A DNA stretch of 32,000 bases. Origin: Methylophaga frappieri. Lineage in GTDB: Bacteria > Pseudomonadota > Gammaproteobacteria > Nitrosococcales > Methylophagaceae. The notes below the pieces were generated by a model. It was given only the letters and a program-made list of their open reading frames with translations, did not search any database and was not told where the DNA came from. Each line of letters begins with the position of its first letter. Position 1 is the first letter of the stretch. The stretch lies in the NCBI RefSeq assembly GCF_000260965.1, contig NC_017856.1:2580001-2612000 (forward strand), read 5' to 3'. Made by a program: the position numbers and the translations under genes. This document shows, piece after piece, positions 16,617 to 32,000 of the stretch.

Positions 16617-16647
16617 ATTGATGTGATAATCAAGGCTTGAATAAAGA

Positions 16648-17383: not shown

Positions 17384-17482
17384 TAGGTTGGGCTGAAGCA
17401 TGAAGCCCAACGTGGGGTTAGGATCCAAAGCTTAGGATCGATTTGTTTTGATTGTTGGGCTTCGTACCTCAGCCCAACCTAC
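17384..17482. repeat. REPIN-like inverted pair of REP elements
   Basis: 17384-17411 reads TAGGTTGGGCTGAAGCATGAAGCCCAAC. The reverse complement of 17454-17482 reads GTAGGTTGGGCTGAGGTACGAAGCCCAA. The two inverted copies are 42 nt apart and lie directly upstream of the RayT remnant. Confidence 0.65.
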
Positions 17483-17687
17483 CTTGCTAGGTTAAACATA
17501 TCGCATCGTGACAGGATGTGCAAAATCGGCATGGAAGAGCTAACTGTTGTCAGCGCTGGGAGTAGCTTACATTGCCCTGATATAGAACAAATCAAGGGGC
17601 AGCTTACTCTATAGTTCTATGACATCAGAGAGCGCTTCTTGAGCTGTTGTGTTTCATGTTGGCTGAACCCTTGATTCCTGTTTTTGG

Positions 17688-18290
17688 TTATTTATAAATT
17701 ATTTTATCTATTAGACCTAATCGTATTTTATTTGCTTTTTTTGATTGAGCGTCAACAAACACAACCCAGTCACTATTTATTAATAATATTTCTGACTCAA
17801 TTACTTTTCCTTCCATGTGTATCTCTGCTCGTGGTTGTTGCGGTCCACCCAAATATGAAGGGATCTTAGGATATATGGTATCTGAAAATTTAAGGCACAA
17901 CATGGTTGTCATTACCCCAATTGCGATAAAGCCCAAGATGATTTTCATAGTTGTTTGAGTTTTCTCGTCAGAGTTTTCGTCAAGGTAAGGTGGATCAACA
18001 CCATATTTATGGTCAACTTGCGAGAGAGACACTCCAACCAGACCGAAAACTATGAAGATGTTAAAAATGATAATTGATTTTAGATCAGGTTCTTGACTAG
18101 CTTGAAATATAAATATCAGAACTGATGGGACAGATATTATTCTAATAATACTTCTAGTTATTTTTTGTCCGGTGCCGTTCCCGACAGTCATCATCCCAAT
18201 CAAATCATGTAATGTAAAAGTTACTACGAATATTGATAGATACCCATGATTTTTAAGTATTAATTGAATAGCCACCGATTCATTAGACAC
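17688..18290 (-). CDS. Hypothetical integral membrane protein (about 4 TM plus a small C-terminal soluble domain)
   Basis: Several hydrophobic helices in a very AT-rich gene. The only start at the 5' end of the ORF is GTG, so the start is uncertain. No family was recognised. Confidence 0.5.
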   Translation of the reverse strand: MSNESVAIQLILKNHGYLSIFVVTFTLHDLIGMMTVGNGTGQKITRSIIRIISVPSVLIFIFQASQEPDLKSIIIFNIFIVFGLVGVSLSQVDHKYGVDPPYLDENSDEKTQTTMKIILGFIAIGVMTTMLCLKFSDTIYPKIPSYLGGPQQPRAEIHMEGKVIESEILLINSDWVVFVDAQSKKANKIRLGLIDKIIYK

Positions 18291-18333
18291 TTATCAGGTT
18301 TCATACTACAAAAGTAACTGGTTCCCAGTTGCA

Positions 18334-18352
18334 GTGTAACTGTTACTAACTT
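18334..18352 (+). promoter_or_regulatory. Cluster motif copy A (GTGTAACTGTTACTAACTT), upstream of the protease gene at 18432
   Basis: Exact 19-mer, identical to 30625-30643. A degenerate tandem copy (aaGTAACTGGTTCCCAGTT) lies at 18312-18330, with the two GTAAC pentamers 22 bp apart. Confidence 0.6.
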
Positions 18353-18431
18353 AATTTCTTACTCCAATCTGAGCATAGTGTAATTACGCAATTTTAATGT
18401 AACTCTATGATTAGAGCTTGGAGGCCTAAAG

Positions 18432-20066
18432 ATGGATAGTCTGTTTAAGATTCTGCTTCTCACCATCCCATTTTATGTTTCGGGATGTGCTCAATTTGTT
18501 GAGACTTCTTACGGAAGTGATGGAAACAACTTCTTTATAAAAAATGCTCAACAACAAGACACAGCCAAAGACGCATACTTCAATGGTGACTTTCATGAGG
18601 CAAAGCTGAGTTGGAAGATACTTAAACAGGAGGTAGATTCTCGTTTACCTGAGATGAAATACCCAGCCGCTCTGTACATGGAAGGGGCTAAGTATGAGGC
18701 AAATTCTGCTTATGCCAGTCTCAAAATGGGAGACCTTGCAGAGGGCTATGAAACTTACAGGAAAGTTTTTGAATATATAAATTCAGAAATTAAGAATCAT
18801 AAAAACTACTCAGAAAACCGGGCTCGGGAAATTAGGGGAAGGAAACTTTTCAGTCAGGCTTTGAGCAAAACTATCACAACAGGTTTACTTTTGGCTGCCG
18901 CTGACTCGACACAAGAGCAATCTGTCTTGAACTTAATTCAAGAAGAAGCCGATCGGATCAGTAGTCTATACAATGAGGATAACTTTTTAGTTGATGACCG
19001 AATTTCTGAGTGGTCACTCCCAGAAGCGCCAGGTGCAATTTCAGACGATGGAATAAGAGTTGTGTTCCTGCCCAGTATTGATGAGCCACTTAACATAGGT
19101 AAATTGACTATCAATACATCCCGAGGTGCCTCACGATGCACTGCGACATTAGTCGGAGAAAAGGTTGCACTGACAGCCGCTCATTGCGTTACAGACGGAG
19201 ATGTTTTAGTTAACCCAGCGTCTTTAACACTTGAGTTTTCTGATTTGTATATCCCAGATGTTGTATCTGTTGAACAAATTGTCACACATCAAAATAAGCC
19301 CTTTGAATACGATAAGCTTCACATAAATCTTGAAGCCCAAGATTGGGCATTACTTGAGCTTACCAGACACCCTGTCGGTAGAGGTTACGCTGGTGTTATG
19401 GATCAAACCCAAGTCAGAGATGACTCTAAGGTGATAGCAACTGGGTTTTCAGCTGACCTTAATGATGGCCGCTACCTATCAATGCATTGGGGCTGTGGAA
19501 TCATAGATAGACAGGCACATTACTCGGAGCTCAAGTGCAAAATATCAGGTGGTGCATCAGGGGGGCCAGTATTCACCCTAGATGAGCAGGATAAGATTAT
19601 CGGAGTCAATTCATATGGCCCTGACACAGAAGTGCGTGAGGGCGTGGCCAACACGTCTGACTTCATAGATTTATTGATTGAGTATAGAAAATCAAATCAT
19701 CAGGGTGATTCGATGATCTTAAATAACAAGGTTCTCAGATCTGTCGACGCGGGCTTTTATGACTGGAACACAGATTGTCAGTTGTCAGGCATTTGGGCTG
19801 AAGCTAATAATTCCATTTCAGTAATGCAAGAGACAATTACGGGTGAGGTAAGTGGCAGAAATGTACGGTACCTAGCTCACTCAGGTTATCTTCAACAGCT
19901 TCAACTTACTGGACAAAAAGTTAGAAGCGGGTTTTACGACACGGTCTATGGGTCTGGAAGCAATGTATATGATGTTCGTGGTAGCTACTATGTCCGTACA
20001 AACACCAATTTGATGATCTCAACTAATGGCTATGGCAAGAAGATAGCCCCAATTCTATGTCAATAA
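18432..20066 (+). CDS. Lipoprotein trypsin-fold (S1, V8/Glu-endopeptidase-like) serine protease with a helical N-terminal region and an extra C-terminal beta domain
   Basis: Lipobox FYVSGC. Catalytic triad motifs are LTAAHCV (His), DWALLEL (Asp) and GGASGGPVF (Ser). A GGAGG SD is present. The ~200-aa helical region before the protease domain contains TPR-like segments. Confidence 0.85.
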   Translation: MDSLFKILLLTIPFYVSGCAQFVETSYGSDGNNFFIKNAQQQDTAKDAYFNGDFHEAKLSWKILKQEVDSRLPEMKYPAALYMEGAKYEANSAYASLKMGDLAEGYETYRKVFEYINSEIKNHKNYSENRAREIRGRKLFSQALSKTITTGLLLAAADSTQEQSVLNLIQEEADRISSLYNEDNFLVDDRISEWSLPEAPGAISDDGIRVVFLPSIDEPLNIGKLTINTSRGASRCTATLVGEKVALTAAHCVTDGDVLVNPASLTLEFSDLYIPDVVSVEQIVTHQNKPFEYDKLHINLEAQDWALLELTRHPVGRGYAGVMDQTQVRDDSKVIATGFSADLNDGRYLSMHWGCGIIDRQAHYSELKCKISGGASGGPVFTLDEQDKIIGVNSYGPDTEVREGVANTSDFIDLLIEYRKSNHQGDSMILNNKVLRSVDAGFYDWNTDCQLSGIWAEANNSISVMQETITGEVSGRNVRYLAHSGYLQQLQLTGQKVRSGFYDTVYGSGSNVYDVRGSYYVRTNTNLMISTNGYGKKIAPILCQ

Positions 20067-20398
20067 CTCATCATCTTGCGTAATTTTATGAATCTGAGAT
20101 TTTACAATTATACGGATTTAGTTGTAGTTCATTGATCACTACTTGCGTCGTCTTATTGTTCGCCAACTCTTAAAACCCATGTTTACTGAAGCGGCCTGTG
20201 GGTGTTGCCATTCCAAGCACCTCCTACATATAAACTGGAGACACTACCTAACTGTTTGAAATGGTCTGTGGAAGAGTGGTAGACCCCCTTTGACTGTTCA
20301 TATGGAACTGTTCTGATGCCCAAATAATAGCCACGAATTGTCTACGATAGTCAAAGCAGTCCCAATATGTAATTCACATAATTGAGTTTTAACCTACA

Positions 20399-20908
20399 TC
20401 AGTGTCTAACTTCGTCATAGTAGAGAATTGCCCATCGGTTCTCTAAGCCACCCATGATCAGTTTAAATGTGGTTTCAAGCTCATAGCCACTATTAAAATG
20501 AATGATCATTAAACGAATATCAGACAACCCCTCAACATCGTTCGGGTATGGTGTGCCAAACTGGTCAAGGTGGTGCGGTTCTCCGGGTTGAGGCTCGATC
20601 ACGGCAAGTTCAACCTTGCATGGTCCTGGTTCTTCGAAATCACAAGACAGAATCTCTTCACATTGATCCGAGACTGTTTTGTCATTGAGGCCGTGTGTAA
20701 GTTGGGATAGTGCATCTTGTGAGTTGAGACTATCAGGATAAAGCATCGAGATGCAGACCATGTCACTGGATTCTATCTTATCAGCAATATCAGCCGTGAC
20801 CGGCGAGTGTGTTAGAAATTCAGCCACGGTTGAGAATAGCGAACTTTCAGTCTGAGCAAACACATTACAAGCACTCAGAAGTAGCATCATTGTCACAAGA
20901 AATTTCAT
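20399..20908 (-). CDS. Secreted hypothetical protein
   Basis: An AAGGAG SD lies 7 nt upstream of the ATG at 20908. Signal peptide MKFLVTMMLLLSACNVFA/QT. Several Cys residues; no family recognised. The ORF is open to 20938. Confidence 0.6.
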   Translation of the reverse strand: MKFLVTMMLLLSACNVFAQTESSLFSTVAEFLTHSPVTADIADKIESSDMVCISMLYPDSLNSQDALSQLTHGLNDKTVSDQCEEILSCDFEEPGPCKVELAVIEPQPGEPHHLDQFGTPYPNDVEGLSDIRLMIIHFNSGYELETTFKLIMGGLENRWAILYYDEVRH

Positions 20909-20934
20909 GAATTGCTCCTTGATCATAGCAAGTG

Positions 20935-21282
20935 TCAATCATCAAAACCGCATTCACAGTGATGCTTATAGCAAGAAACCTGGAAGCAATCGGGGCATAT
21001 CTCCAAGTTGTCGAGCTTGAATCGATCACCGCAAACGCTGCAGCAAAGCTTTCTGTTGATAAAAGCCGTGTAATCCAATCCCACAGCTGCTCTTTTCATC
21101 CAATAGGCGCTTACCATCTTCTTCAACTCTGATTCGTCTATGGTTGAGTGCTGTGTCATGTAAAGCTCTGCGGCCAAAACAATGACAGGGCTGAGCTCCT
21201 CAAGAACTAATTGACCCTCATCGCTGATTTCAGAACACAGCCTAATGATCTTTAATGCAGATGGTGAATGAACCCGGGTCAT
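20935..21282 (-). CDS. Cytoplasmic hypothetical protein with a C-terminal Cys-rich (zinc-ribbon-like) motif
   Basis: No signal peptide. The C-terminus reads CCSVCGDRFKLDNLEICPDCFQVSCYKHHCECG. The ATG at 21282 forms an ATGA overlap with the stop of the upstream gene. The ORF is open to 21309. Confidence 0.55.
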   Translation of the reverse strand: MTRVHSPSALKIIRLCSEISDEGQLVLEELSPVIVLAAELYMTQHSTIDESELKKMVSAYWMKRAAVGLDYTAFINRKLCCSVCGDRFKLDNLEICPDCFQVSCYKHHCECGFDD

Positions 21283-21845
21283 GGACGCTGTGATTTGATT
21301 CGAGTGCATTCACCGTATGATGAGGTGATATGGTTATCAGTAAAAGGTCGTTGGGTCTGCTGATAGTGACCCAGCCCGCCATCAAACCTGATCTCTAGCA
21401 GGTGATCTGATTGGCATTGAATGGTGTCTTCATTGCTGCCGTTGACGTTGATCTTGCAGGCTGCCATTTCTACCGCTTGCCCGATGGTATGTAACTCATA
21501 ACATCGGCTGTAATTCATGATATGGAGGTGACCCATTTTACTGGAGAGGTGGTCAGGCATGTGATCACTACCTCGAAATAATGCGAGACAAGCTAACTGG
21601 TCAGTCTCTGTCATTGAGTTATGATTGAGCTGTCTTAGCGTGATGTCATCACCACCAAGCTGGAAACTGCCTTCAGCGCCCACTACAGCGGTTTGTTTTG
21701 GTGTGCATGCTATAGAGGCGTATCCTAAATCGGGCAGGCTCAAGTCTCTATCAGACATGAAGGCGGCCCAATCCAACTGCTTAGAGAGAGCGGTTACAGG
21801 GCTAATAATACAGAGCAGACATATGCTGAGAGTTAGGTTTTTCAT
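21279..21845 (-). CDS. Secreted hypothetical protein
   Basis: Signal peptide MKNLTLSICLLCIISPVTALS/KQ. Eight Cys residues in the mature part. The ORF extends to a TTG at 21869. Confidence 0.6.
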   Translation of the reverse strand: MKNLTLSICLLCIISPVTALSKQLDWAAFMSDRDLSLPDLGYASIACTPKQTAVVGAEGSFQLGGDDITLRQLNHNSMTETDQLACLALFRGSDHMPDHLSSKMGHLHIMNYSRCYELHTIGQAVEMAACKINVNGSNEDTIQCQSDHLLEIRFDGGLGHYQQTQRPFTDNHITSSYGECTRIKSQRP

Positions 21846-21893
21846 ACAATGCCCAATCCTTTTGAACAATCTATTACTTGTTGATAAGCGGCT

Positions 21894-22427
21894 TCATGAG
21901 ATGTAAGTGTTGATGGCATTGAGTGTCAGCCACCATCCTGGCAGGATTTCAAGCAAAAGAAATGTGAGACCTTCTTTTTGCAGCACGCTGACACCAATGT
22001 CCACGTTAACCTCATAAAACCTGTCGTTGACCAGCCATTTAATTAGATTTCCCAGTGTGCTTAATTTTTCATCATCGAGTGCTTTTTTATGCACCTGGAT
22101 AAAAACTGGAGGAGGACTTTTGGCTGGTGTTTTAGCATCCGTGTATAGCTCATCTGAAAAGATGATCGCTTGATTTCCATGCCTAAAATTCTCTGCATGC
22201 TGCCTGCCGGCATCAACGTATATGATGGCGTTGTCTTTGTCGAAATAGTTATCCCTGGTGAGCTTTGGTAAAGCTTCCAAGAGGTGAACGATGAGCTCAT
22301 GGCTGACAACATTCTTTGCGCTCTCTGCTCTTTCAGATCGAGACACCGTCAGAAAACTGGTGATTAGCATCAAGGCTAATAACGCACAGATTAAAAGAGA
22401 CCTATGGCTCCTAGTAGGTATCTTCAT
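21894..22427 (-). CDS. Secreted or membrane-anchored hypothetical protein
   Basis: N-terminal MKIPTRSHRSLLICALLALMLITSFLTVS is a signal or anchor sequence. The gene starts 16 nt after the SDR stop codon. No family recognised. Confidence 0.6.
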   Translation of the reverse strand: MKIPTRSHRSLLICALLALMLITSFLTVSRSERAESAKNVVSHELIVHLLEALPKLTRDNYFDKDNAIIYVDAGRQHAENFRHGNQAIIFSDELYTDAKTPAKSPPPVFIQVHKKALDDEKLSTLGNLIKWLVNDRFYEVNVDIGVSVLQKEGLTFLLLEILPGWWLTLNAINTYIS

Positions 22428-22443
22428 GGAATTACATATCCTA

Positions 22444-23241
22444 TCAAGAGCTACGACGATACCCAGTTACTGTCATCAGCCACTGCACGACACTTGGAAA
22501 CATAAAATGCTGCCAGCAGACTGTTTTCATCATAAAAGGGATCACAATTCGTCGTTTGTTCTTTTCGATACCTTTTACAATAGCCTTAGCTACCTGCTCA
22601 GGAGTGAGGTTAGGAATCATTTTTGCAATTTTGGGTACACGCTCTCTGCTTCCAGGGTTGTGTTGCCAGTATTCAGATTCGACCACGCCACTCTCAAATA
22701 GAGTTACGCCAATATCTTTGCCATACAAGTCAGCACGTAATGCTTCATTGAAGCCTTTCATGGCCCATCTGGCAGCATGGTAAGCGGTAGCGCCTGGCCA
22801 CACAAAACGAGAGCTCACAGAGCTAATATTCACAATATGACCGCAGTTGCGCCTGCGCATTTCAGGAAGAAAAGCCCGAGTAAGGTTAAAGGCCGCAAAG
22901 TAGGGAACTTCCATCATCTGCCAGGCTTCATCAGCACTGGTCTCCTGAATATCTTTCCATTGTCCTCGTCCAGCATTATTGATCAGGATGTCAGGTGTGC
23001 CTATCTCAGTGTTGATTTGCTTGGCAACATTTTCGACCATCTCGGCATCTGCAAGGTCAAGTGCATAATAGTGTGCATCCCCACCGGAGGCTTTAATTTC
23101 TGACTGAACCTCTTTTAGGCGGGCCTCATTTCTTGCAAGGAGAATGACTCTAGCTCCTTTCCTTGCCAGCTCTTTTGCCGTGGCGGCACCAATACCGCTC
23201 GATGCCCCTGTCACTATTGCTGTTTTGGCGTTCAAATTCAT
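22444..23241 (-). CDS. Short-chain dehydrogenase/reductase (classical SDR) with a hydrophobic C-terminal tail
   Basis: TGASSGIGAATA (TGxxxGxG), NNAG and ISS are present. The active-site region reads AYHAARWAMKGF, where Arg sits at the position of the YxxxK Lys. Confidence 0.9.
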   Translation of the reverse strand: MNLNAKTAIVTGASSGIGAATAKELARKGARVILLARNEARLKEVQSEIKASGGDAHYYALDLADAEMVENVAKQINTEIGTPDILINNAGRGQWKDIQETSADEAWQMMEVPYFAAFNLTRAFLPEMRRRNCGHIVNISSVSSRFVWPGATAYHAARWAMKGFNEALRADLYGKDIGVTLFESGVVESEYWQHNPGSRERVPKIAKMIPNLTPEQVAKAIVKGIEKNKRRIVIPFMMKTVCWQHFMFPSVVQWLMTVTGYRRSS

Positions 23242-23332
23242 CTAGTTTCTCCAGAACTAATGCTCACATGACTTTTCTCAGCACTTAGGTATCTTTTCTG
23301 ATTCCTTGAGATGGCCTTGTAGACATAATTTC

Positions 23333-24607
23333 TCATTCGGATGGACGCAGCTCTGTTAGATGCTCTGGCTCGGTTAGCTTGCGTAATCTGACTAGAGCGT
23401 CATAAAACATTGAGCTAGATGCTCCCAATGCCTTTGAACCGTCATCAAGTGGCGTTCTGGAGTATCCTGCGCCGCTTTGGACTCTGTAGCCAGCAGCATT
23501 TACGCCTATTACTGTCGGATTTTGAGGAATTGATGACATCAAAAGAATCGGTGAGCCAGATGAGCCGCCCCAAGTCACACATGTGTAATCATGTTGCCCC
23601 ATGATTCCCTGTCCCTTGCGGAGTTCACAACCCCAGTCAAGAGACATCAATTGTCCCTGGTTGAGATCCCCAGAGTAACCACCTATGGCGATTTTGGTTC
23701 CACTATCGAGTTGAGATGTTTCCGGCATAACATCAAGGTAGCCTCTACCATATGGGTGTCTATCAAGTACCAAAATGGCCCAGTCATGCTTTGTTTCTTT
23801 CGTATAATCGCCCTTTGAGCGAACTACCTCTTTGATATTGACGCTGTCCGGATGCCTGAGCGAATCAAACAGTAGCACACCCTCTTGCCAGACATCATTG
23901 CCTTGCTCGTTTTCAACACAATGCTTGTTAGTCAGTGCCAATCGATAACCAACGAGAGAAGCTGTGCACCAACCGCTTTGATTTTTAAATTTGGCCACAT
24001 GAAAGAGGGCGTTGGTAGTGGGGACAACAACTAAGCGGACACCATCGTGCTCGGGTCGTTTCTGACCCATTAGCTCTGGAGAGTTGATGTTTTTGAGACC
24101 CTCTATACTGGTGTCGATGAGCTTGTTCCCTAGCTCAAAATACACGCTGTTTAAAATAGAAGAGCCAGATGATGTCGCCGCTTGAAGCTGAAGCAATGCT
24201 CCCATCACCTGCGTGTTGTATTCACCGGTAGATTTATTCAGCCGAACCATTTCAGCCTCATCTTCCTGGAATTGATTAAAGGCATTCAGATACATCTCCC
24301 TCGCTTTTATTGGATACCCTTGAAGCAGCAGGCTCCAGGCGGAGAAGAGGTCAATCTTCATACTATCGACGTAATAACTCCCAGTGTAGTAATTTTCTCC
24401 AGAAGGTAGAGAATTTCTGGCTGACGCAATCAATTGATCGACCGTGTCGTAATCACGCTCTATAAGGGCGGTATCTATGCCATCAAACTTTGCCTCTAAA
24501 GTACTTTTGATTACCTCATGTTGATCGACTTCCAGGACTCTAAGCTCTTTTGTACACGCTGATGCGAGCAAAACAAGCAAAATAGGGATAATTCGAGATT
24601 TCATCAT
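23333..24607 (-). CDS. Lipoprotein trypsin-fold (S1) serine protease, paralogue of 18432..20066
   Basis: Signal/lipobox LLVLLASAC. Triad motifs are LTNKHCV, DWAILVL and GGSSGSPIL. It shares DG(I/V)R(V/L)V..P...CTA(T/S)LVG...ALT..HCV with the other protease. A GGAGA SD lies inside the upstream gene's 3' end, and TAATG overlaps that gene's stop. The ORF is open to 24622. Confidence 0.85.
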   Translation of the reverse strand: MMKSRIIPILLVLLASACTKELRVLEVDQHEVIKSTLEAKFDGIDTALIERDYDTVDQLIASARNSLPSGENYYTGSYYVDSMKIDLFSAWSLLLQGYPIKAREMYLNAFNQFQEDEAEMVRLNKSTGEYNTQVMGALLQLQAATSSGSSILNSVYFELGNKLIDTSIEGLKNINSPELMGQKRPEHDGVRLVVVPTTNALFHVAKFKNQSGWCTASLVGYRLALTNKHCVENEQGNDVWQEGVLLFDSLRHPDSVNIKEVVRSKGDYTKETKHDWAILVLDRHPYGRGYLDVMPETSQLDSGTKIAIGGYSGDLNQGQLMSLDWGCELRKGQGIMGQHDYTCVTWGGSSGSPILLMSSIPQNPTVIGVNAAGYRVQSGAGYSRTPLDDGSKALGASSSMFYDALVRLRKLTEPEHLTELRPSE

Positions 24608-25077
24608 TAATCTCCTTTGCAAGGCAATGCTCGAACTTTAGAGAGATAAACTGTATGTTTTCTGTTCACATAGAATGGCAAGAAAGTATCTGTAGTTTCA
24701 TATTTTGCCTCATCAATAGCTGGGAATTGTTCAATGGCTATCTCGTACTTAGTACCTTCACCAGCCCAACCATAACCATTCCTGATCGTACCTTCCCATC
24801 GATTGGTAACTCCATTCCAACCTCCTTTGAAATCCCTTAAGGTGTGACTATCACCGAGGGTGTTGAAGTGTTTTCCTTTGAGCTCAAGTTTATCCCCCAG
24901 AACCGTGATCACTGCACTGCCTCCAGTGTATGCAGCCCCTTTAATTGTCCAGACCCCGGATAAATAGCATTTATTGAATGCGCCATCGGGGTCATATTTA
25001 TTCAATATTGGTGAAGCCAAGCTCGAATGAGACGAAAAAGCCAATATGGCTGAGATAATAGAAACTCCAATCTTCAT
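24607..25077 (-). CDS. Secreted hypothetical beta-rich protein, first gene of the minus-strand operon
   Basis: A GAGGG SD precedes the ATG at 25077. Signal peptide MKIGVSIISAILAFSSHSSLA/SP. The mature part begins with ...CYLSGVWTIKG and ends with ...LPC. The ORF is open to 25113. Confidence 0.65.
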   Translation of the reverse strand: MKIGVSIISAILAFSSHSSLASPILNKYDPDGAFNKCYLSGVWTIKGAAYTGGSAVITVLGDKLELKGKHFNTLGDSHTLRDFKGGWNGVTNRWEGTIRNGYGWAGEGTKYEIAIEQFPAIDEAKYETTDTFLPFYVNRKHTVYLSKVRALPCKGD

Positions 25078-25156
25078 AGGTGCCCTCGCATGACTTTCTG
25101 AACCTGTTGACATATTTATGTTGAAAAAAAGTTTGCGGTATTATGAAAAAAAATAG

Positions 25157-25175
25157 CAGTTAGAAACGGTTACAA
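25157..25175 (-). promoter_or_regulatory. Cluster motif copy B (minus strand reads tTGTAACcGTTtCTAACTg), upstream of the operon starting at 25077
   Basis: 15 of 19 positions match the exact 19-mer. A GTTAC pentamer (minus-strand reading of 25183-25187) starts 14 nt upstream of the motif's GTAAC. The site lies in the divergent intergenic region shared with the regulator gene. Confidence 0.5.
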
Positions 25176-25225
25176 ACTTGGTGTAACCTTGTTACAAGGG
25201 TGGTTCAGAGTGGTCAGGGATTGTA

Positions 25226-26797
25226 ATGGTTGTTCTAGAGGAAATAGATAAAGACAGAGTCCGAGAGCATGCAGAAAAAATCTTAGCAAGCCGGTACTTT
25301 TCGAATTCAACACGTCAGCAACGATTTCTTAAATATTTAGTCAGTCAATCCTTAAGTGATGACGCTCCATCTCTCAAGGGCTATACGATTGGGATAGAGG
25401 TTTTCGATAGAGAACCAGACTTTGATCCTGGAGTGGATTCCATTGTCAGGGTTGAGGCCACTCGAATTCGAAACAAGCTCAGGGAATATTACGAAAAGGA
25501 AGGGGCTCAAGATGAGGTTCGAATCCATTTTCGAAAGGGCACATATAAACTTGAATTTACTATTGGCTCACAAACCCCGGAACGGGTCACTCCAGAAGAA
25601 AATACTGAACCAGAAACCATATCAAGTAAACCATCTTTAGTTGTCCTTCCTTTTGTATCAATCGGTCCAGATAATTCCCGCGACTACTTTGCCGATGGCA
25701 TAACTGACAGTTTGATCTCCCTGCTGGCGAGGTTGTCGGGTTTGTTCGTTATATCAAGACAATCTGCTTTTACTTACAAGGATACTCTTAAGACATCCAA
25801 TGAAATTGCTACAGAATTGGGTGTTCAATATTTACTAGAAGGCAGCCTCCAACACGCCGGTGATCGTGTTCGAATAGCTGCTCGTTTGGTCAATGCTGAT
25901 AATAGCTCACACATTTGGTCAGAAAGGTATGATTGTGACCTGACAGATATATTTGCTTTACAAGACGAAATAACAAAGCAGATAGTCGATGCCTTAAAAG
26001 TTCAATTGACAAGGAAAGAAGATAAGCTCTTTGGAGTTAAAGCAACAAATAATATTGATGCTCACGACATGCTGTTGAGAGCTGTTGCTATCTACTATAA
26101 GTATTCAAAAGAGAGTACTGAGCAATCAATAGAGCTACTTCAACAGGTTATAGAGCTGGATGAAAACTATGTTGCTGGACACGCATGGTTAGCCCGGGCG
26201 TTGTCATTTATGTGGTCAATGCACTGGTGCCGAGAGCGTTCAATATTAAATAGGGCTATTGATTCTGCAAGTAAAGCGCTTGAACTAGATCCCCAATCGC
26301 CATATGCAAACTCGGTTATGGGCTGGGTATTGATGTGGCGTTTGGATGAGGCTTCATCGATTTCGTACTGTAAAAAAGCCGTATCGTTAGATCCAAACAA
26401 TGCAGAAGCTCTGTTGTTTCTGTCTATGACTCTATCTTCTGCTGGCCTGGGCGAAGATGCTCTGGAGAGCGCAAAAAAAGCGATGCGCTTCACACCAACC
26501 TCCGCACCGTTTTATCAGTACGCCTTGGGTAATGCTTATTACGTGCTCAAGGAATATAAAAAATCATTAGACGCCTATGAGCATGGCATTAAATTAAACA
26601 CCAATTTTTTACCAAATCATTATGGGCAATTATGTGCCTTTGAACGATTGGGTAGGCAGGAAGAGATTACTAAAAAGTTGGTAGCTTATGAACAACTCAG
26701 AAACCTTATTGAGTTGGCTGACAATCCAATTTGGACCAGTGATGAAATTCTCACAGAAGTAAAGCAAATACGAAAAAAACTGTTTGCTGAAAAATGA
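25226..26797 (+). CDS. Soluble transcriptional regulator: OmpR/CadC-type winged-helix region, TolB-N-like domain and C-terminal TPR repeats
   Basis: The N-terminal part reads RQQRFLKYLV....LKGYTIGIEVF......DSIVRVEATRIRNKLREYY....VRIHFRKGTYKLEF, a trans_reg_C-like wing pattern. It is followed by PSLVVLPFVSIG...DYFADGITDSLISLLARLSGLFVISRQS. Several TPR-like units follow (e.g. ALGNAYYVLKEYKKSLDAYEHGIKLNTNF). No TM segment was seen. Confidence 0.7.
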   Translation: MVVLEEIDKDRVREHAEKILASRYFSNSTRQQRFLKYLVSQSLSDDAPSLKGYTIGIEVFDREPDFDPGVDSIVRVEATRIRNKLREYYEKEGAQDEVRIHFRKGTYKLEFTIGSQTPERVTPEENTEPETISSKPSLVVLPFVSIGPDNSRDYFADGITDSLISLLARLSGLFVISRQSAFTYKDTLKTSNEIATELGVQYLLEGSLQHAGDRVRIAARLVNADNSSHIWSERYDCDLTDIFALQDEITKQIVDALKVQLTRKEDKLFGVKATNNIDAHDMLLRAVAIYYKYSKESTEQSIELLQQVIELDENYVAGHAWLARALSFMWSMHWCRERSILNRAIDSASKALELDPQSPYANSVMGWVLMWRLDEASSISYCKKAVSLDPNNAEALLFLSMTLSSAGLGEDALESAKKAMRFTPTSAPFYQYALGNAYYVLKEYKKSLDAYEHGIKLNTNFLPNHYGQLCAFERLGRQEEITKKLVAYEQLRNLIELADNPIWTSDEILTEVKQIRKKLFAEK

Positions 26798-26827
26798 GGA
26801 TTTACTCTTGATGAGAGTCAGTCTCAG

Positions 26828-27094
26828 ATGGTGAAAAGAATTAATGTGATGAAGTTAGCCTTGTTTATTCTTGCACTTGTAATAGTTGCTGGCGGTTTTG
26901 CAATCTTCATTGAAGTGCAAACTTCAGCAAAAACTGTCTATGCTGATGATGATTCTTCCCATCCACTATCTGATATTACTGATGAGGAGTTTTATGAAAT
27001 CCAAGCAGAAATTGCAAGATTAGAAGCTGAAGCTGCGAAGTTGATCGAAGAGGGTCAGTCGACAAATGAGGAAAAACAGGGGGTAGAAGAATAG
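26828..27094 (+). CDS. Small membrane-anchored/secreted acidic coiled-coil protein
   Basis: An N-terminal hydrophobic helix (KLALFILALVIVAGGFAIFI) is followed by a D/E-rich helix (EEFYEIQAEIARLEAEAAKLIEEG). An alternative start lies at 26849. Confidence 0.5.
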   Translation: MVKRINVMKLALFILALVIVAGGFAIFIEVQTSAKTVYADDDSSHPLSDITDEEFYEIQAEIARLEAEAAKLIEEGQSTNEEKQGVEE

Positions 27095-27298
27095 TCAATT
27101 TGGCTCTTTCGATTGTTCTTCCTTGTTAGAATCCGTTGTATCTTCAATTTCCTCTAACTCCGTCTTCATGGCGGATTCTGCTTCATTTTGATCTTCAATA
27201 GCTTGTTGTAAGGCATCATCCATGTCTGTTGTTCCTGGCTCATTAGCCATTAAACCCAGTGAGACAAGTGCCAGAGATAGTGTAAGTAAAAATTTCAT
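27095..27298 (-). CDS. Small secreted acidic protein (67 aa)
   Basis: An AAGGA SD lies 8 nt upstream. Signal peptide MKFLLTLSLALVSLGLMA/NE. The mature peptide is strongly acidic. Confidence 0.55.
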   Translation of the reverse strand: MKFLLTLSLALVSLGLMANEPGTTDMDDALQQAIEDQNEAESAMKTELEEIEDTTDSNKEEQSKEPN

Positions 27299-27427
27299 AC
27301 TATATTCCTTCTATCTACTGAAAAAATAGTAGGTTTCAGGTTTTCTTTAAAGCATTAGTCACGCTTAAATTTCCATTTTCCAAAAATAGTATTCCCTTCT
27401 TTAAAACTCTCACAAGGTTACATTTAG

Positions 27428-27446
27428 ATGTAACGGTTTCTAACTT
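27428..27446 (+). promoter_or_regulatory. Cluster motif copy C (aTGTAACgGTTtCTAACTT), upstream of the lipoprotein operon starting at 27609
   Basis: 16 of 19 positions match the exact 19-mer. A GTTAC pentamer at 27417-27421 starts 13 nt upstream of the GTAAC. Confidence 0.5.
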
Positions 27447-27608
27447 CACGTCATACGTCTCTTTCAACATGATTTAGTCATCCACCTTGACTCGCGATTA
27501 GTGAGCGAGAATTTGAGGGCTGCGAGGAGAAATGATGTGACTACACATGAGCAACAAGAGCATTCAGACTCAAATACCGTAAGGTCCTCAGTGGTTGACG
27601 GTTTGACG

Positions 27609-28115
27609 ATGCTAAACCTAGCAAAGACCCTGGCCTTGTTAATGAATGTATTCATGCTTTTGGGATGCGACAGCGCCGAGACTGTTGAAATCAGGCCACT
27701 AGAGAGCAACTTGGGATGGCTAGTTGGAACTGGCAACGATAAAGGCGTTTTCGACAACCGCGTGTATTCGGATGATTGCTCGTCATTTGAGACTGGCTTC
27801 TGTTATCAGAAGCTCAAAGAAATTATCTACACGGCGGAGAATATTGATCTCGACCAGTTGTGGTTTGAGCAGTTGAAGAAAAAACGCTATTACAACGAGA
27901 TCAAACGGGTCACGATCCACGCGGATACGGTTAATATCAGACACAACATCGCGCTCCCTTCTCGTGATATTGAGATTTTTGCCGAGAACATTCATATCTT
28001 TGATGGAGCGCAGCTCAATACAACGCCTCTCCATGCCACAACACATACGCTCGTTAGCGCTTACGAGCCGATTGTGACTTACTCCTTGGCATACCGAAAA
28101 GCTGTTATGAAGTGA
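27609..28115 (+). CDS. Lipoprotein, segment 1 of a possibly single frameshifted gene (repeat-bearing, perhaps beta-helix-like)
   Basis: Lipobox FMLLGC when started at MLNLAKTLALL. The 36 codons upstream in the ORF track (from a GTG at 27501) look non-coding. Contains repeats of the type VTIHADTVNI / IEIFAENIHIF. Confidence 0.55.
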   Translation: MLNLAKTLALLMNVFMLLGCDSAETVEIRPLESNLGWLVGTGNDKGVFDNRVYSDDCSSFETGFCYQKLKEIIYTAENIDLDQLWFEQLKKKRYYNEIKRVTIHADTVNIRHNIALPSRDIEIFAENIHIFDGAQLNTTPLHATTHTLVSAYEPIVTYSLAYRKAVMK

Positions 28116-28921
28116 GGCATAGCCCGTCTGAGTGTGAATACACCATCGGAGAACGGGGTGAGAATGGTGGAAACATCACGCTTTCAGCCAACACATTAAA
28201 AGTTATCTCATGGCAAAATGATGATGCCAAGGCGCTGGAGGCCAATGGTGGTAGGGCCTATTCCGGTTATTCAGGGGTGTTCCCCATCAACAGTAGCATC
28301 AGAGGTCTTTCAAAAAAAACACTCAACAGCTTTCATCATGATCTTCTTGATGAACGAAGTGCATTCGATGCGTTGAATACGTTTTGTGAGATTGACTATG
28401 GAGAGGCAGCCCCAACTTATGCGCCGTATTCAAGGATGGCTAAACTCCGAGACGTTATCCAGATTACGCCCCACAATTTCAAGAAAACTGAACCACATTA
28501 CCAGAAAGTGGTGAGCAACGACGCCGAGCTGGTTCAGGCGCGTTACAACATCGGCGCCATCAACCTCCAGGAGGGGAATAGCATTACGCCTTTGCTTTAC
28601 GCCGAGGAACTGCAAAAAACAATTAACGATGCCGGCGTACCATCCTATCGTCTAACCCCAGGGTCAATCCGAGCCCCTATCTTTCCATCCAGTAACACAG
28701 ATATCGCCGATAAAGGTGATGGCGGGACTATCCATTTAAAAATCGACACATTCTATGTTGAAGGCGTTCAAGTCAGTGCTGCGGAGTGGATTAAAGGTCA
28801 CACATCAACGCTCCCTGGTGGCCAAACATCACCTCAGATTCTGGCAGTGTTTGATGCCCTATCAGAGCAGAAACTCCAGCAGAAAAGGTGCTTGCAATGG
28901 ATGCGTATCGTGAAGCACTAA
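28112..28921 (+). CDS. Segment 2 (frame -1 relative to segment 1), hypothetical
   Basis: A GTG start overlaps the previous stop (GTGA). Contains GENGGNITLSANTLKVI and GDGGTIHLKIDTFYVEG, the same alternating pattern as segment 1. Confidence 0.5.
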   Translation: MRHSPSECEYTIGERGENGGNITLSANTLKVISWQNDDAKALEANGGRAYSGYSGVFPINSSIRGLSKKTLNSFHHDLLDERSAFDALNTFCEIDYGEAAPTYAPYSRMAKLRDVIQITPHNFKKTEPHYQKVVSNDAELVQARYNIGAINLQEGNSITPLLYAEELQKTINDAGVPSYRLTPGSIRAPIFPSSNTDIADKGDGGTIHLKIDTFYVEGVQVSAAEWIKGHTSTLPGGQTSPQILAVFDALSEQKLQQKRCLQWMRIVKH

Positions 28922-29169
28922 AAACATTCAACCCGGACGTGCCGGTCTTGTACAGCGTCACGCTCAAAAAGCATCTAGATGGCAGGATCTCATGCCGCAC
29001 CCAAGTTATCGAGGAAACCCTCATTAAAGACGAAGTGCGTTTTGATGTCAGATACGCCAATACCGGTGCACCCAATTTTCTGGATCGAACAAGCTATGCA
29101 GGCAAGCACGGACATGTGGAGCACGAATTTAACTCCATAATGGGATGGGTCCGAGCTGCTTTGAGGTAG
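28897..29169 (+). CDS. Segment 3 (frame -1 relative to segment 2), hypothetical
   Basis: The ATG at 28897 is preceded by AAGG, and the GTG at 28888 in the ORF track is also possible. It overlaps the end of segment 2 by 25-34 nt. Confidence 0.45.
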   Translation: MDAYREALKTFNPDVPVLYSVTLKKHLDGRISCRTQVIEETLIKDEVRFDVRYANTGAPNFLDRTSYAGKHGHVEHEFNSIMGWVRAALR

Positions 29170-29243
29170 TTGTGCTGGGAGCGGTTTTAAGAATCAATTC
29201 AGCGGCCCCTTGGCAGATGCTAACAACAATGTGAGATAGTCAA

Positions 29244-30539
29244 ATGAGAATATACTGGCTTATATTGCAAAACACTGTGACGGTTTTAGGGCTGCTTATA
29301 GCCACAGGGTGTGCCTCGATCACTGAAACGGTAAGCTCAACGATTGATTATGTCACCCCCGATCCAGGTCTGGTAGAAGTCGATTATGTCGCCCATTTTG
29401 GCGAAAAGGACGGTATAGAGCTTGAAGTTTTTGACCATCGTTTTTTTGTCCCAGAGAGAGCGTTATCGCTGCCGGCGCTGTTTACGCTTACCACTGACGA
29501 TGATTATGAAGAAGCCTCACTCCGGCTCCTGAGGGATAAGGCGTTTAACCAGTCATATAAAGATATAGAAAAACTGGCCTCGGCTGCGAAGTTCACACCT
29601 TACCTTGAAGCCAAGCTATTTGCTGCCTGGGCAAACAAGTTGTCAATCAGCAAATCGGTATCCAACCTTGTCTTGTTCACTGCGATGAAGAAAAAAGGTT
29701 ACAGAACACTTTTGGTCTCATCACTTTCTCAACAAGAGGTGATGATTGCGACACATAGAAGACTCCTCTTATCAACCTATTTCCTTACAGATGACAACAC
29801 TGGAGAGCCGTATGGTCACGCGTATCCGATCTTGGCCAAATACCCGGCCAAATTTGACACCAGCAACAGCCGGGTCGTGATTAAAACCCAGAACATGAAG
29901 CCCTTAGACATCTTTGCCGGTCTGGACACCTTCACTAATCACAAGCGTTATGAAAAAGTCAGGACCAGGCAGGTATCTTTTTTCTACAAAGGTAAGCGCT
30001 TGCGTATAGATCTGGACTACTCTGTGCCTGTCTCCCAATACCATTACCGCCTTCCCCCTATAGACTACGAACAAAGTGGTGACTACATCACCAAATACAC
30101 GGTGTTTGATGCCTTTACTGGAAAATCAATGAGGGCAGCGGTGGCAGAATATGTCGATGACCCAAATAACAAATTAGAAGTCGCGCGCTTTTTGCTAGCA
30201 ATGACGCAGTATGGCTTTGAATACAAAACGGATGATGAATACTACGGACATAGTCACCCCGTGTTTGCGAAAGCCATGCTGTTGCCCAGGACAGAGGCCT
30301 CTGATTGTGAAGACAAAACCTTTTTCTTTAACGCATCAGCAAGGCTGTTCGGTATTGAGACTGCTATTGCTCTGGTGCCTGGGCATATGTTTTCACTCAT
30401 AGCGCTACCTCCACCCAGTAATGAAAGTCATTTTTTTCAAGGTCGATGGCTCGCGGCGGAGGCCACTGGGAGAGGCCATTCTCTTGGAGAGGTGTATTCC
30501 TATCTCGAGGGAATAACTCCAGAGATATTTTTAGAGTAA
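29244..30539 (+). CDS. Lipoprotein with a C-terminal transglutaminase-like (papain-fold) core
   Basis: Lipobox LLIATGC. The C-terminal part reads SDCEDKTFFFNASARLFGIETAIALVPGHMFSLI...GRWLAAEATG. This fits the transglutaminase-core pattern C....(F)...(L)(R)..GI.(A)..V.GH........W...D with Glu in the Asp position. Confidence 0.6.
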   Translation: MRIYWLILQNTVTVLGLLIATGCASITETVSSTIDYVTPDPGLVEVDYVAHFGEKDGIELEVFDHRFFVPERALSLPALFTLTTDDDYEEASLRLLRDKAFNQSYKDIEKLASAAKFTPYLEAKLFAAWANKLSISKSVSNLVLFTAMKKKGYRTLLVSSLSQQEVMIATHRRLLLSTYFLTDDNTGEPYGHAYPILAKYPAKFDTSNSRVVIKTQNMKPLDIFAGLDTFTNHKRYEKVRTRQVSFFYKGKRLRIDLDYSVPVSQYHYRLPPIDYEQSGDYITKYTVFDAFTGKSMRAAVAEYVDDPNNKLEVARFLLAMTQYGFEYKTDDEYYGHSHPVFAKAMLLPRTEASDCEDKTFFFNASARLFGIETAIALVPGHMFSLIALPPPSNESHFFQGRWLAAEATGRGHSLGEVYSYLEGITPEIFLE

Positions 30540-30624
30540 CAATTTGAAATATTTCCATCAGATCAGTCATGCTCTAAAGCTTATAAGCCCTGAGGCCTTG
30601 CAATCTAACAGGTGTTACTTCCTG

Positions 30625-30643
30625 GTGTAACTGTTACTAACTT
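30625..30643 (+). promoter_or_regulatory. Cluster motif copy D (GTGTAACTGTTACTAACTT), upstream of the gene at 30699
   Basis: Exact 19-mer, identical to copy A. A GTTAC pentamer at 30614-30618 starts 13 nt upstream of the GTAAC. The ORF-track 'start' at 30612 reads through this motif and is unlikely to be real. Confidence 0.6.
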
Positions 30644-30698
30644 CTATAGACATGGAACATCGAGCAAGCTAGAACTAAAACCAGATGAAGAGGTAACC

Positions 30699-31382
30699 AT
30701 GAAAAACGTTATTTCGAAACCGTTGGCCACTGTAATGCTTTCGTTCTTATCACAGACTTCTAGTGCTGAAATTCTTGACTATTACGAGTGCCATCAAATC
30801 TCCAGTTATTATCATGAGACCCTGCCAGGACTCATGGCTGATGTTCACCAAGCATACGAAAACTATTCTGGAACAGCTTACTCCTCTTATCTGGAGCACT
30901 ATCAATATTTCAGTGATCGTAAAGAAAAACTAATAGATGAACTAGAAGATGGCGGAGCAAGTGACTGGATGCTTTATAGACATCATGCCGCTCAGTACAT
31001 TCAACAAGCGTCAATGGCCTCACTGTCAGCGCTGAGTATTACAAGCCCGATTTACGGTCCTTTTGTGTCGATAGTGGGTATGTCTCAGTCATTAATGGCT
31101 GAGGATCTTGAAGGCATATTTCTCAATTCTCTGGGTATTACTGGCGTCAATGTCATTGCAGGATTAACAACGGCACGTGAAATGGTTACTTCTGCCGCCT
31201 CGATGCAAGAGTTTGAGAGTAAGCATGGTGACTTGCGGCAATTTCTACTGGATCGCTTTGAAGCGGTTGAATATCAACTTCAGCGAGCAGAAAGCGCCAT
31301 GGACGCCCATGAGAGAGTGACTGAGGTTCACCTTCTTCAACAGACACTTTCAGCCTATTTGGTCAACTACTGCGCTAATTAG
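30699..31382 (+). CDS. Secreted helical hypothetical protein
   Basis: A GAAGAGG SD lies upstream of the ATG at 30699. Signal peptide MKNVISKPLATVMLSFLSQTSSA/EI. The sequence is helix-rich with a central hydrophobic stretch. No family recognised. Confidence 0.65.
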   Translation: MKNVISKPLATVMLSFLSQTSSAEILDYYECHQISSYYHETLPGLMADVHQAYENYSGTAYSSYLEHYQYFSDRKEKLIDELEDGGASDWMLYRHHAAQYIQQASMASLSALSITSPIYGPFVSIVGMSQSLMAEDLEGIFLNSLGITGVNVIAGLTTAREMVTSAASMQEFESKHGDLRQFLLDRFEAVEYQLQRAESAMDAHERVTEVHLLQQTLSAYLVNYCAN

Positions 31383-31537
31383 GGGCCAAGCCCATGTCTT
31401 CTTTTATCAGACCAATCGGATACAGACTCGTCAATCAATCTGACAGAAATGGGCCTGAGGTGGTGCTGGCTACTCGTATTTTAGAAAGCTGGCTTTTAAA
31501 GCCTCTTGTAGCTAAACATTTAATAAGGAACTCAGCT

Positions 31538-32000
31538 ATGAGCAGTGTAAGTAAATATCTTTTAATACTGTCCCTCATCCTTTTGGCTTTGGGTTCGCGA
31601 ACCGTATTTGCTGCCAGTGTTGTGGGCGTTAGCAGTTCTTATGACTTCAAGTTCAATGCACGCGTCAGTCTCGGTCATGATATTGACGTTCCTGTTTACA
31701 TGGATGAGACCAGTAAGGTCGATGATCATAAGATTTTCAAAATATTTGTTATCCCGCCTGTGCTGATTGACTGGGATGGGTTCCAAGCCAAATATGAAAG
31801 ACTCTGTCCCGCGAGCGAACAGGAAAAAAAAGTCGATTTTAAATATCCTTATTCGTTAATCAGCAAAACGCTGATTCAGCAAGTCAATGAACAGTCTAAC
31901 GCGTGGCTAAGTGACTTGTTCGAAAATGCCAACGCCGTCTACCCAGGGCACACCCATCAGAATATCTCTAACATTCCGTACTATCAGTACACGCTTTATG
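31538..32000 (+). CDS. Secreted hypothetical protein, 3'-truncated by the window edge (absent from the ORF track)
   Basis: The frame is open from 31394 to the window end. The ATG at 31538 has an AAGGA SD and starts the canonical signal peptide MSSVSKYLLILSLILLALGSRTVFA/AS. An alternative start at 31394 lies 12 nt after the previous stop. Confidence 0.6.
   Translation, partial: MSSVSKYLLILSLILLALGSRTVFAASVVGVSSSYDFKFNARVSLGHDIDVPVYMDETSKVDDHKIFKIFVIPPVLIDWDGFQAKYERLCPASEQEKKVDFKYPYSLISKTLIQQVNEQSNAWLSDLFENANAVYPGHTHQNISNIPYYQYTLY

Follow-up and report, generated by a model that had tools for sequence, protein, structure and literature searches.

The DNA described here lies between 17.7 and 32 kb of a 32-kb window on the genome of Methylophaga frappieri JAM7 (the window being the whole stretch of 32,000 nucleotides (nt) that was analysed, to which all coordinates refer) and corresponds to the Q7C_2602-2613 region. 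A first, sequence-only reading of this DNA had described about 17 tightly packed open reading frames (ORFs) starting at 17.7 kb, and this inventory holds: 17 packed ORFs were found between 17688 and 31382, and an eighteenth (ORF18), which starts at 31538, leaves the window and places the right border of the cluster beyond view. The ORFs form seven strand-consistent units: ORF1 (-), protease 1 (+), ORF9-protease 2-SDR-ORF6-ORF5-ORF4-ORF3 (-), ORF10-ORF11 (+), ORF12 (-), ORF13-ORF16 (+) and ORF17 (+). Within the minus-strand unit that runs from ORF9 to ORF3 the intergenic gaps do not exceed 91 nt. In a codon-usage test, for which the model was derived from the left half of the window, the in-frame score beat that of the other five frames for 17 out of 17 ORFs, the weakest, marginal cases being ORF4, ORF5 and ORF15. 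Our best explanation of the locus, to which we attach about even confidence, is that it constitutes a lineage-specific local regulon of envelope hydrolases. The genes that matter most to this explanation are (lengths in amino acids, aa):

18432..20066, plus strand: protease 1 (ORF2), 544 aa, AFJ03723, lipobox VSGC
23333..24604, minus strand: protease 2 (ORF8), 423 aa (RefSeq start), lipobox ASAC, helical N-terminal and trypsin-fold domains
24607..25077, minus strand: ORF9, 156 aa, secreted partner protein encoded upstream of protease 2
25226..26797, plus strand: ORF10, 523 aa, no signal peptide or transmembrane (TM) segment, C-terminal TPRs
29244..30539, plus strand: ORF16 (Q7C_2613), 431 aa, lipoprotein (ATGC), the C-terminal ~190 aa forming a predicted transglutaminase-like-fold domain

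The shared DNA motif and its candidate reader

Repeat finding recovered a shared motif, TGTAAC-N-GTTWC-TAACT, of which the window contains four copies:

18334..18352, plus strand: copy 1, GTGTAACTGTTACTAACTT, core T 97 nt upstream of the protease 1 ATG
25158..25174, minus strand: copy 2, TGTAACCGTTTCTAACT on the minus strand, 97 nt from the ORF9 start and 52 nt from the divergent ORF10 start
27428..27446, plus strand: copy 3, ATGTAACGGTTTCTAACTT, in the divergent intergenic region of ORF12 and ORF13
30625..30643, plus strand: copy 4, the same GTGTAACTGTTACTAACTT as copy 1, with the ORF17 Met (30699) 73 nt downstream

The scan was confined to the 32-kb window. Within it, four copies compare with 0.01 expected by chance (shuffles, up to 3 mismatches), and the 11-nt core GTAACNGTTWC yields four sites versus 0.10 expected, counted as six strand-matches because two of the sites are palindromic. 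With a position weight matrix (PWM) of the 17-nt core the four sites reach 27-28 bits, and the next-best site on the 64 kb of both strands has 20 bits. This fifth site (4239-4255, plus strand, TTTAACTGTTTCTAACA) is located inside an RTX gene and is probably due to chance. Left of the cluster, over 17 kb of ordinary genes, no motif of comparable strength was encountered.

The four copies share a distinct layout. All four have the pentamer STAAC at +1 and +11, and three of them have it at -21 too; the inverted pentamer GTTAC occupies -12/-13 in three copies and +7 in two. The sequences flanking the motif are non-alignable and the phasing of the pentamers is preserved. Considering that the flanks have diverged while the phasing was kept, the copies point to selection on a protein-binding site and not to recent duplication. 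Each copy is oriented toward a downstream gene and three of them are situated in divergent intergenic regions, namely those of ORF1/protease 1 (where copy 1 lies 45 nt upstream of the ORF1 start), ORF9/ORF10 and ORF12/ORF13; as a consequence, every unit from ORF1 to ORF17 adjoins a copy, in line with the earlier claim that the units have a motif in common. The distance from core to start is the same, 97 nt, for both protease units (protease 1, and ORF9 with its RefSeq start). The motif is highly non-random and is cis evidence for a predicted co-regulation of the units.

Other identities were considered for the motif. It matches no Rfam family. A sigma-70 or extracytoplasmic function (ECF) promoter was rejected, as no consistent -10 element at a fixed spacing could be discerned by eye in the aligned upstream regions, and a promoter scan gave no excess of promoter-like sites (15 versus 29.6 expected). 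Direct pentamer repeats at a spacing of 10 nt are typical of binding by winged-helix proteins of the OmpR/PhoB family, and the motif shares this arrangement with OmpR-family sites.

Given that the 10-nt-spaced pentamers fit OmpR/PhoB-type winged helices and that ORF10 is encoded divergently from a motif copy, we favor ORF10 as the regulator. Its TPRs were recovered above threshold by three profiles (TPR_2 with 53.4 bits, TPR_1 with 50.3 and TPR_11 with 47.3) and its center holds a weak TolB_N/FlgO-like stretch. In addition, residues 128-429 are collinear with the parts that follow the DNA-binding domain in the NCBIfam models of HilA/EilA (9.7e-13) and CadC (4.4e-10), at scores far below the cut-offs. 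The N-terminal 115 aa resemble an OmpR/CadC-type winged helix by eye alone. Thus, ORF10 has in common with the one-component regulators of CadC/HilA type, which combine an N-terminal OmpR-like winged helix with a TPR region, both the TPRs and the collinear match to the region after the DNA-binding domain, but it differs from CadC in that it has no transmembrane segment and in that the winged helix is undetected. The earlier description of the protein as a winged helix-turn-helix (wHTH)-TPR regulator therefore stands for its TPR part, which is backed by the profiles, and is unconfirmed for its wHTH part, as residues 1-125 match nothing in Pfam or among PDB sequences. The protein, which was originally annotated as an adenylate cyclase, is probably the best candidate to read the motif, by means of a putative DNA-binding domain that escapes the profiles.

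The exported hydrolases and the partner protein

The two S1 serine protease lipoproteins that had been read from the sequence were recovered as such, on basis of the Pfam profiles, the lipoboxes and their paralogy. Protease 1 scored 39.5 bits and protease 2 36.5 bits on the Trypsin model (cut-off 20.6 bits), and 35.2 and 35.0 bits, respectively, on Trypsin_2 (cut-off 27.6). The two proteins are 28% identical (E = 4e-32) over the N-terminal and catalytic domains. Protease 1 consists of a helical N-terminal domain, a trypsin-fold domain (with TAAHC, DWA and GGASGGP) and a 115-aa Cys-bounded C-terminal extension. In an alignment of 18 family members the catalytic triad H234/D280/S355 (429-aa numbering) is invariant or nearly so, and both proteases of the window carry it; the family further shows the lipobox, the usual disulfide cysteines and a helical N-terminal domain of ~200 aa, for which no family assignment was obtained. 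Around the protease 1 gene a 26-nt imperfect inverted repeat (73% complementary) was observed, at 18366-18391 and 20076-20101, which may reflect chance or may be a trace of the insertion of the paralogue.

The nearest solved structures are 7uxg, a 'serine protease' (2.6e-18), and 1p3c, the glutamyl endopeptidase of Bacillus intermedius (1.5e-12). The label of glutamyl endopeptidase (V8-like) derives from the annotation name and from the distant similarity to 1p3c, and should be taken as a predicted specificity. With the glutamyl-endopeptidase-like branch of peptidase family S1 (7uxg, 1p3c and the V8 protease 1qy6) the proteins share the trypsin fold, the order His-Asp-Ser, and the TAAHC and GxSGxP sequences, but they are set apart as lipoproteins with an extra helical N-terminal domain of ~200 aa, and by their rarity and the conserved gene for a partner protein upstream. 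In fact, the family comprises only 19 clusters in 5.8 billion, with 28-31% identity for the best non-self matches; a search of 185,579 species genomes turned up a single locus, to which three short metagenome loci can be added.

The ORF9 protein has a Cys near its mature N-terminus, within C-Y-L-S-G-V-W, and another Cys 4 residues from its C-terminus. Its stop overlaps or abuts the start of protease 2 (TAATGATG, TAATG), and a GGAG Shine-Dalgarno sequence inside the 3' end of ORF9 precedes protease 2. The same layout was found elsewhere: in five independent distant loci (L001, L002, L003, L005 and L008/L009) a signal-peptide ORF of 155-169 aa is positioned directly upstream of the protease gene, mostly with a 4-nt overlap. 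Common to the partners are C-[YF]-[LF]-[AS]-G-x-W, close to the mature N-terminus, and a Cys a few residues from the C-terminus, an arrangement that suggests a disulfide. At L006/L007 a 168-aa DUF3617-like secreted ORF precedes the protease homologue and an SDR follows it (L006 235-3090). This order mirrors that of ORF9, protease 2 and the SDR in the window, which could be a coincidence or could reflect a three-gene unit; the two SDRs are 33% identical over 150 residues, a similarity that is possibly coincidental as well.

The conservation of the partner-protease gene order is solid. The ORF9 protein itself is a positional analogue of the other partners with a motif-level similarity, and its status as a homologue is unproven. 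The partner profile shows no similarity to any Pfam or PDB entry. Protease 1 and the family member P0006 both lack an upstream partner, and both possess a C-terminal extension of ~115-130 aa with the two motifs of the partner, which provides a lead, and only that, toward a fused partner. Ecotin and the pro region of alpha-lytic protease are likewise small exported proteins encoded with, and presumably binding to, a trypsin-fold protease, but the partner, with its lack of similarity to any Pfam or PDB entry, has a role that is suggested by the conserved gene order alone.

For ORF16, which had been read as a lipoprotein of transglutaminase/papain fold, the structure predictions support the assignment. 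The protein matches no Pfam model (E <= 0.1; Peptidase_C93/LapG included) or NCBIfam model, and a word-seeded search returned only itself. An exhaustive HMMER search, in contrast, recovered 410 representative clusters that match the C-terminal ~190 residues, all of them without a Pfam or NCBIfam assignment or a name; one relative, P0021, showed a sub-threshold similarity to Transglut_core2 (15.9 bits versus a cut-off of 23.5). In an alignment of 40 sequences C355 and H381 are invariant, and at least 90% have Asp at the third position, where ORF16 itself has Glu (E406). AlphaFold2 (AF2) modeling of ORF16 with the alignment yielded a pLDDT of 81.8 and a pTM of 0.79, versus a pLDDT of 38 in a single-sequence run. 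The top Foldseek matches of the model in the PDB were all of transglutaminase fold (3isr, 3kd4, 2f4o (PNGase), TG2, menin and Rad4), with leading probabilities up to 0.99 and weak E-values of 3e-3 and worse; a comparison of the ORF16 profile to PDB sequences gave nothing meaningful. ORF16 thus shares the fold and the invariant Cys and His with the transglutaminase-like superfamily (BTLCP/LapG, PNGase and the putative proteases 3isr and 3kd4), but differs in the lack of a profile match, in the Glu for Asp and in belonging to an uncharacterised family. Another member of the ORF16 family was observed on a 3.1-Mb contig (L015 1-17464), within a same-strand run of unassigned genes and PEGA/CarboxypepD_reg/FGE-sulfatase genes in the style of the Bacteroidota, which hints at a different, conserved context for the family.

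The combination of these enzymes calls to mind the sspABC operon of Staphylococcus aureus, which specifies the V8 serine protease, the cysteine protease staphopain B and a staphostatin inhibitor. The analogy is that in both cases a V8-like serine protease, a Cys-His enzyme of the papain/transglutaminase clan and small protease-adjacent proteins are encoded together, and the likeness stems from the genes alone. The differences are considerable: there is no sequence relationship beyond the S1 fold, the proteins discussed here are Gram-negative lipoproteins distributed over seven transcription units and not one operon, and the ORF9 partner is exported whereas staphostatin is cytoplasmic.

The remaining genes, the left flank and searches for related loci

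The other ORFs of the cluster are mostly small and without a family assignment:

17688..18290, minus strand: ORF1, 200 aa, polytopic membrane protein with 4 predicted TM segments, singleton WP_041366737
20399..20908, minus strand: ORF3, 169 aa (RefSeq start), signal peptide/lipobox LSAC, ORFan
20935..21309, minus strand: ORF4, 124 aa, no signal peptide, Cys-rich zinc-ribbon-like C-terminal tail
21279..21845, minus strand: ORF5, 188 aa with signal peptide, ORFan
21894..22427, minus strand: ORF6, 177 aa, N-terminal signal/anchor, ORFan
22444..23241, minus strand: ORF7, 265 aa, SDR-family oxidoreductase, cytoplasmic
26828..27094, plus strand: ORF11, 88 aa, N-terminal TM anchor, acidic tail
27095..27298, minus strand: ORF12, 67 aa, signal peptide, acidic tail, divergent from ORF13
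27609..28115, plus strand: ORF13, 168 aa from the Met at 27609, lipoprotein LLGC-D, longest ORF from 27501
28112..28921, plus strand: ORF14, 269 aa, no signal peptide, GTGA overlap with ORF13
28888..29169, plus strand: ORF15, 93 aa, no signal peptide, alternatively 90 aa from the ATG at 28897
30699..31382, plus strand: ORF17, 227 aa from the Met at 30699, signal peptide, ORFan
31538..32000, plus strand: ORF18, partial, at least 154 aa, signal peptide, AAGGAA Shine-Dalgarno sequence

Of the 17 ORFs, 11 begin with a hydrophobic segment that resembles a signal peptide, and a lipobox is present in five of these 11 (ORF2, ORF3, ORF8, ORF13 and ORF16). When the four TM segments of ORF1 are included, 12 of the 17 ORFs have a signal-like segment or TM segment, compared with the earlier count of at least 12 that start with a signal peptide or lipobox. 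This corresponds to a binomial P of ~7e-4 relative to a background of 30%, which is an assumed value from general knowledge and not one measured for the M. frappieri genome. The export calls are heuristic and depend on the start codon, for which RefSeq-supported or Met-proximal positions were used; the lipobox criterion was the pattern [LVI][ASTVI][GAS]C in combination with a hydrophobic core. For ORF5 (21279-21869, minus strand) the start differs between public annotations, giving 134, 159 or 188 aa, and a signal peptide is present in the longest version only; the 159-aa version is that of RefSeq. ORF4 had the poorest coding score of the set and, with the start used here, is absent from the protein collection. 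The alternative start of ORF15 (ATG at 28897) is preceded by an AAGGTG Shine-Dalgarno sequence.

ORFs 1, 3-6, 11-15 and 17 obtained no assignment from Pfam, NCBIfam, PADLOC or PHROG, and ORF18 none from Pfam, the one collection checked for it; none of these twelve has a paralogue inside the window. Single-sequence searches of ORF14 and ORF17 against PDB sequences gave nothing meaningful. ORF7 is an ordinary member of its family (adh_short, 175.1 bits, E = 1.5e-51), and accounts for the one SDR listed before. Of the remaining items in that list, the operon overlaps recur for GTGA (ORF13/14) and TAATG (ORF9/protease 2), a repeat-bearing lipoprotein was not recovered (searches for tandem and internal repeats came out empty), and a transposase relic within the cluster found no Pfam or NCBIfam match.

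The cluster begins right after a REP/REPIN-RayT remnant (REP, repetitive extragenic palindrome), as had been noticed from the sequence:

16980-17312, minus strand: RayT remnant, NF047646 match, C-terminus in another frame
16582-16631, 17376-17425 and 17454-17486: REP palindromes, GTAGGTTGGGCTGA...AGCCCAAC, bracketing the decayed RayT gene

The RayT gene scores 123.2 bits on NF047646 (cut-off 80), with only positions 1-108 of the 146 in the model aligned, and its C-terminal WPYSS segment persists downstream in a different frame; the partial match and the displaced C-terminus identify the gene as a remnant. The AT-rich stretch described for the left part of the cluster was confirmed, with a GC content of 0.365-0.374 at 17.5-19 kb versus roughly 0.42-0.49 across most of the remaining region. 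A second dip (0.371) is found at 26.5-27.5 kb and the values per ORF range from 0.34 to 0.49.

Further to the left, the window holds a gene for a 2247-aa RTX-repeat protein with BapA-prefix-like and HCBP_related domains (133-6876, plus strand), followed by one for a GGDEF diguanylate cyclase (7221-8660, plus strand). The two resemble a biofilm adhesin with cyclic-di-GMP signaling; they are located 11 kb left of the cluster and no link between them and the cluster was found. An 85-aa ORF for ribosomal protein L31 (10271-10528, minus strand; Pfam Ribosomal_L31) has an MFS transporter, a glyoxalase and a dienelactone hydrolase as neighbours. Finally, the ORF at 12494-13279 (minus strand) pairs a NERD nuclease-related domain with a topoisomerase-type C4 zinc ribbon, a pairing that is frequent in stress- or defence-associated genes.

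Exact look-ups among ~15 billion proteins showed protease 2, ORF16 and eight further ORFs to be present in M. frappieri only, protease 2 being 100% identical to a Methylophaga frappieri protein, and the 90% clusters of the ORFs that were looked up contain only start-codon variants or short fragments. A tblastn search of the 17 ORFs against the loci of the protease homologues (L001-L003 and L005-L009) and the nearest locus of an ORF16 homologue (L004) returned the query's own family and the single SDR of 33% identity. Judged by called genes and Pfam labels, four further loci (L013-L016) contain nothing similar to the cluster, and three others (L010-L012) are too short to be informative. The idea of a conserved multi-gene system is thereby lost: the cluster genes are not co-conserved at the loci compared, and since only the pair of a small secreted protein and a protease recurs elsewhere, the cluster does not represent such a system.

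In agreement with the sequence-only reading, in which no known system was recognised, searches for secretion, defence, toxin-antitoxin, phage and RNA families gave no match. A defence system was rejected, as the PADLOC matches were limited to RT-protease and LmuA, both via a generic protease domain, and the other 15 ORFs had none. A prophage was likewise rejected: PHROGs yielded FabG-like and nucleotide-sugar-epimerase matches, which are typical SDR cross-matches, and two unnamed families, each of them matched by a single member. There is no tRNA in the region and an RNA element was dismissed for want of an Rfam match. A plasmid origin was discarded, as none of 72,556 plasmids matched ORFs 13-17 in a tblastn search. 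In the literature nothing relevant was found on genomic islands of M. frappieri, on DUF3617 or on 7UXG.

A proposed local regulon and the alternatives

Based on the above, the cluster looks like a strain-specific regulon that was built from one rare conserved module and a set of ORFans. The promoter regions of all seven units would contain a composite operator (STAAC at -21, +1 and +11, with an inverted GTTAC at -12 and/or +7), most likely read by one DNA-binding protein, for which ORF10 could serve as a one-component sensor-regulator. The output would be a set of proteins exported via Sec or as lipoproteins, with activity at the outer membrane or in the periplasm: two lipoprotein proteases of trypsin fold whose triads are intact, a Cys-His lipoprotein hydrolase, a membrane protein and ~10 small secreted ORFans. 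Protease 2 would be made from a translationally coupled pair with the Cys-bounded ORF9 protein, secreted and ~140 aa long in its mature form, which may bind the protease in the periplasm and control it as an inhibitor, chaperone or adaptor. It is the conserved translational coupling alone that leads us to propose such control. In protease 1 the Cys-bounded C-terminal extension may do the job of ORF9 in cis. The envelope direction and the three hydrolase folds of the envelope-directed proteolytic/remodelling cluster that was described at the outset are hence retained, and the notion of a conserved system is given up; the term 'remodelling' is pure conjecture.

Several observations weigh against this explanation. 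The N-terminal part of ORF10 (residues 1-125) has no Pfam match at E <= 10, Trans_reg_C included, and no match among PDB sequences, and RefSeq labels the protein merely as a TPR protein. The motif may be a genome-wide site for a regulator that is encoded elsewhere, considering that the scan covered the 32-kb window. No other cluster gene is co-conserved at the loci compared, so that the coherence of the cluster comes down to the motif and the shared export. With respect to the protease module, a leave-one-out hidden Markov model (HMM) connects ORF9 to the other partners with an E-value of only 1.2, and the extension of protease 1, when tried as a fused partner, gained no profile support (HMM E = 2.6, hhalign probability 6.9%) and is kept as a suggestion. 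One protease homologue (L014) has neither an upstream partner nor an extension. Finally, the open stretches of ORF13, ORF14 and ORF15 (27501-29169) overlap, each in a frame of its own, and ORF13 alone has an export signal; the three may represent a single frameshifted and possibly decayed gene for a lipoprotein of ~530 aa, or a sequencing error.

The same observations may be read differently. The cluster could be a patchwork accessory island, in which unrelated ORFans, horizontally acquired or arisen de novo, came to lie beside the decayed REP/RayT element without a common function, and in which the motif is read by a regulator encoded elsewhere (e.g. of OmpR/ArcA type) or is a genome-wide promoter element. 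We regard this as possible, though rather unlikely. It would account for the fact that the genes looked up are singletons restricted to M. frappieri, most of them without a family assignment, that the homologues of the proteases and ORF16 occur elsewhere in entirely different neighbourhoods, that ORF10 has no detectable DNA-binding domain, and that an uneven GC content (0.34-0.49 per ORF) goes together with a RayT remnant at the left border. It does not readily explain why the other 17 kb of the window lack a comparable motif, yet every unit of the cluster adjoins one, why 12 of the 17 products are directed to the envelope with three hydrolases among them, two of which are paralogous, or why the candidate regulator is divergent from one of the motif copies.

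Two other explanations take a common function for granted and differ in what the enzymes act on. If the proteases and the transglutaminase-fold enzyme were toxins against the envelopes of competitors, with ORF9 and ORFs 3, 5, 6, 11 and 12 as periplasmic immunity proteins, the translationally coupled pairing of a small periplasmic protein and a protease in several distant loci and the strain-specific, variable content would be as expected, and transglutaminase/papain-like folds are common among envelope-targeting effectors. We consider this improbable, as the window shows no secretion-system gene, Rhs/PAAR/VgrG, CdiA or bacteriocin-export marker, the ordinary lipoprotein signals would keep the enzymes on the membranes of the producer itself, and immunity genes do not usually precede the gene for the enzyme, as the partner gene does here. 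Equally doubtful to us is a role in nutrient scavenging, in which surface or periplasmic proteases and accessory binding proteins would digest external protein and peptides in the biofilm habitat of the methylotroph. The two intact trypsin-fold proteases (with 7uxg and 1p3c as nearest solved relatives), the additional Cys-His hydrolase fold, the export signals on the products and the sensor-like TPR protein encoded in the cluster all suit such a role, but the cluster has no peptide/amino-acid transporter or TonB-dependent receptor, the enzymes are lipid-anchored instead of freely secreted, and a partner that probably restrains the protease would be less expected in bulk digestion than where specific targets are processed under control.

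Within the local regulon of envelope hydrolases, a more far-reaching version can be formulated, which we put forward as a speculation that is rather unlikely to hold in full. The rare lipoprotein protease with its obligatory, upstream or fused, Cys-bounded partner would be an unrecognised module for the control of proteases in Gram-negative envelopes, and two copies of it would have been recruited by a new type of one-component TPR regulator, which is cytoplasmic and has its DNA-binding domain in cryptic form, to be driven from a private 40-bp operator together with a member of an uncharacterised transglutaminase-fold hydrolase family and ~10 de novo-like secreted proteins. Taken singly, the S1 proteases, the transglutaminase-fold hydrolase, the TPR regulator and the operator are of familiar kinds, and their assembly matches no described system.

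The general importance of the locus is limited, given that only one sequenced strain has the cluster and that it comes with no phenotype. It does flag three uncharacterised families, i.e. the lipoprotein S1 proteases with a helical N-terminal domain, their positional partner and the transglutaminase-fold family of ~410 clusters, and the presence of one motif and one candidate regulator makes expression work straightforward. If the interpretation as a local regulon is true, the locus would offer a compact and testable example of a private, co-regulated set of exported enzymes that was assembled largely from genes for which no relatives are detectable.

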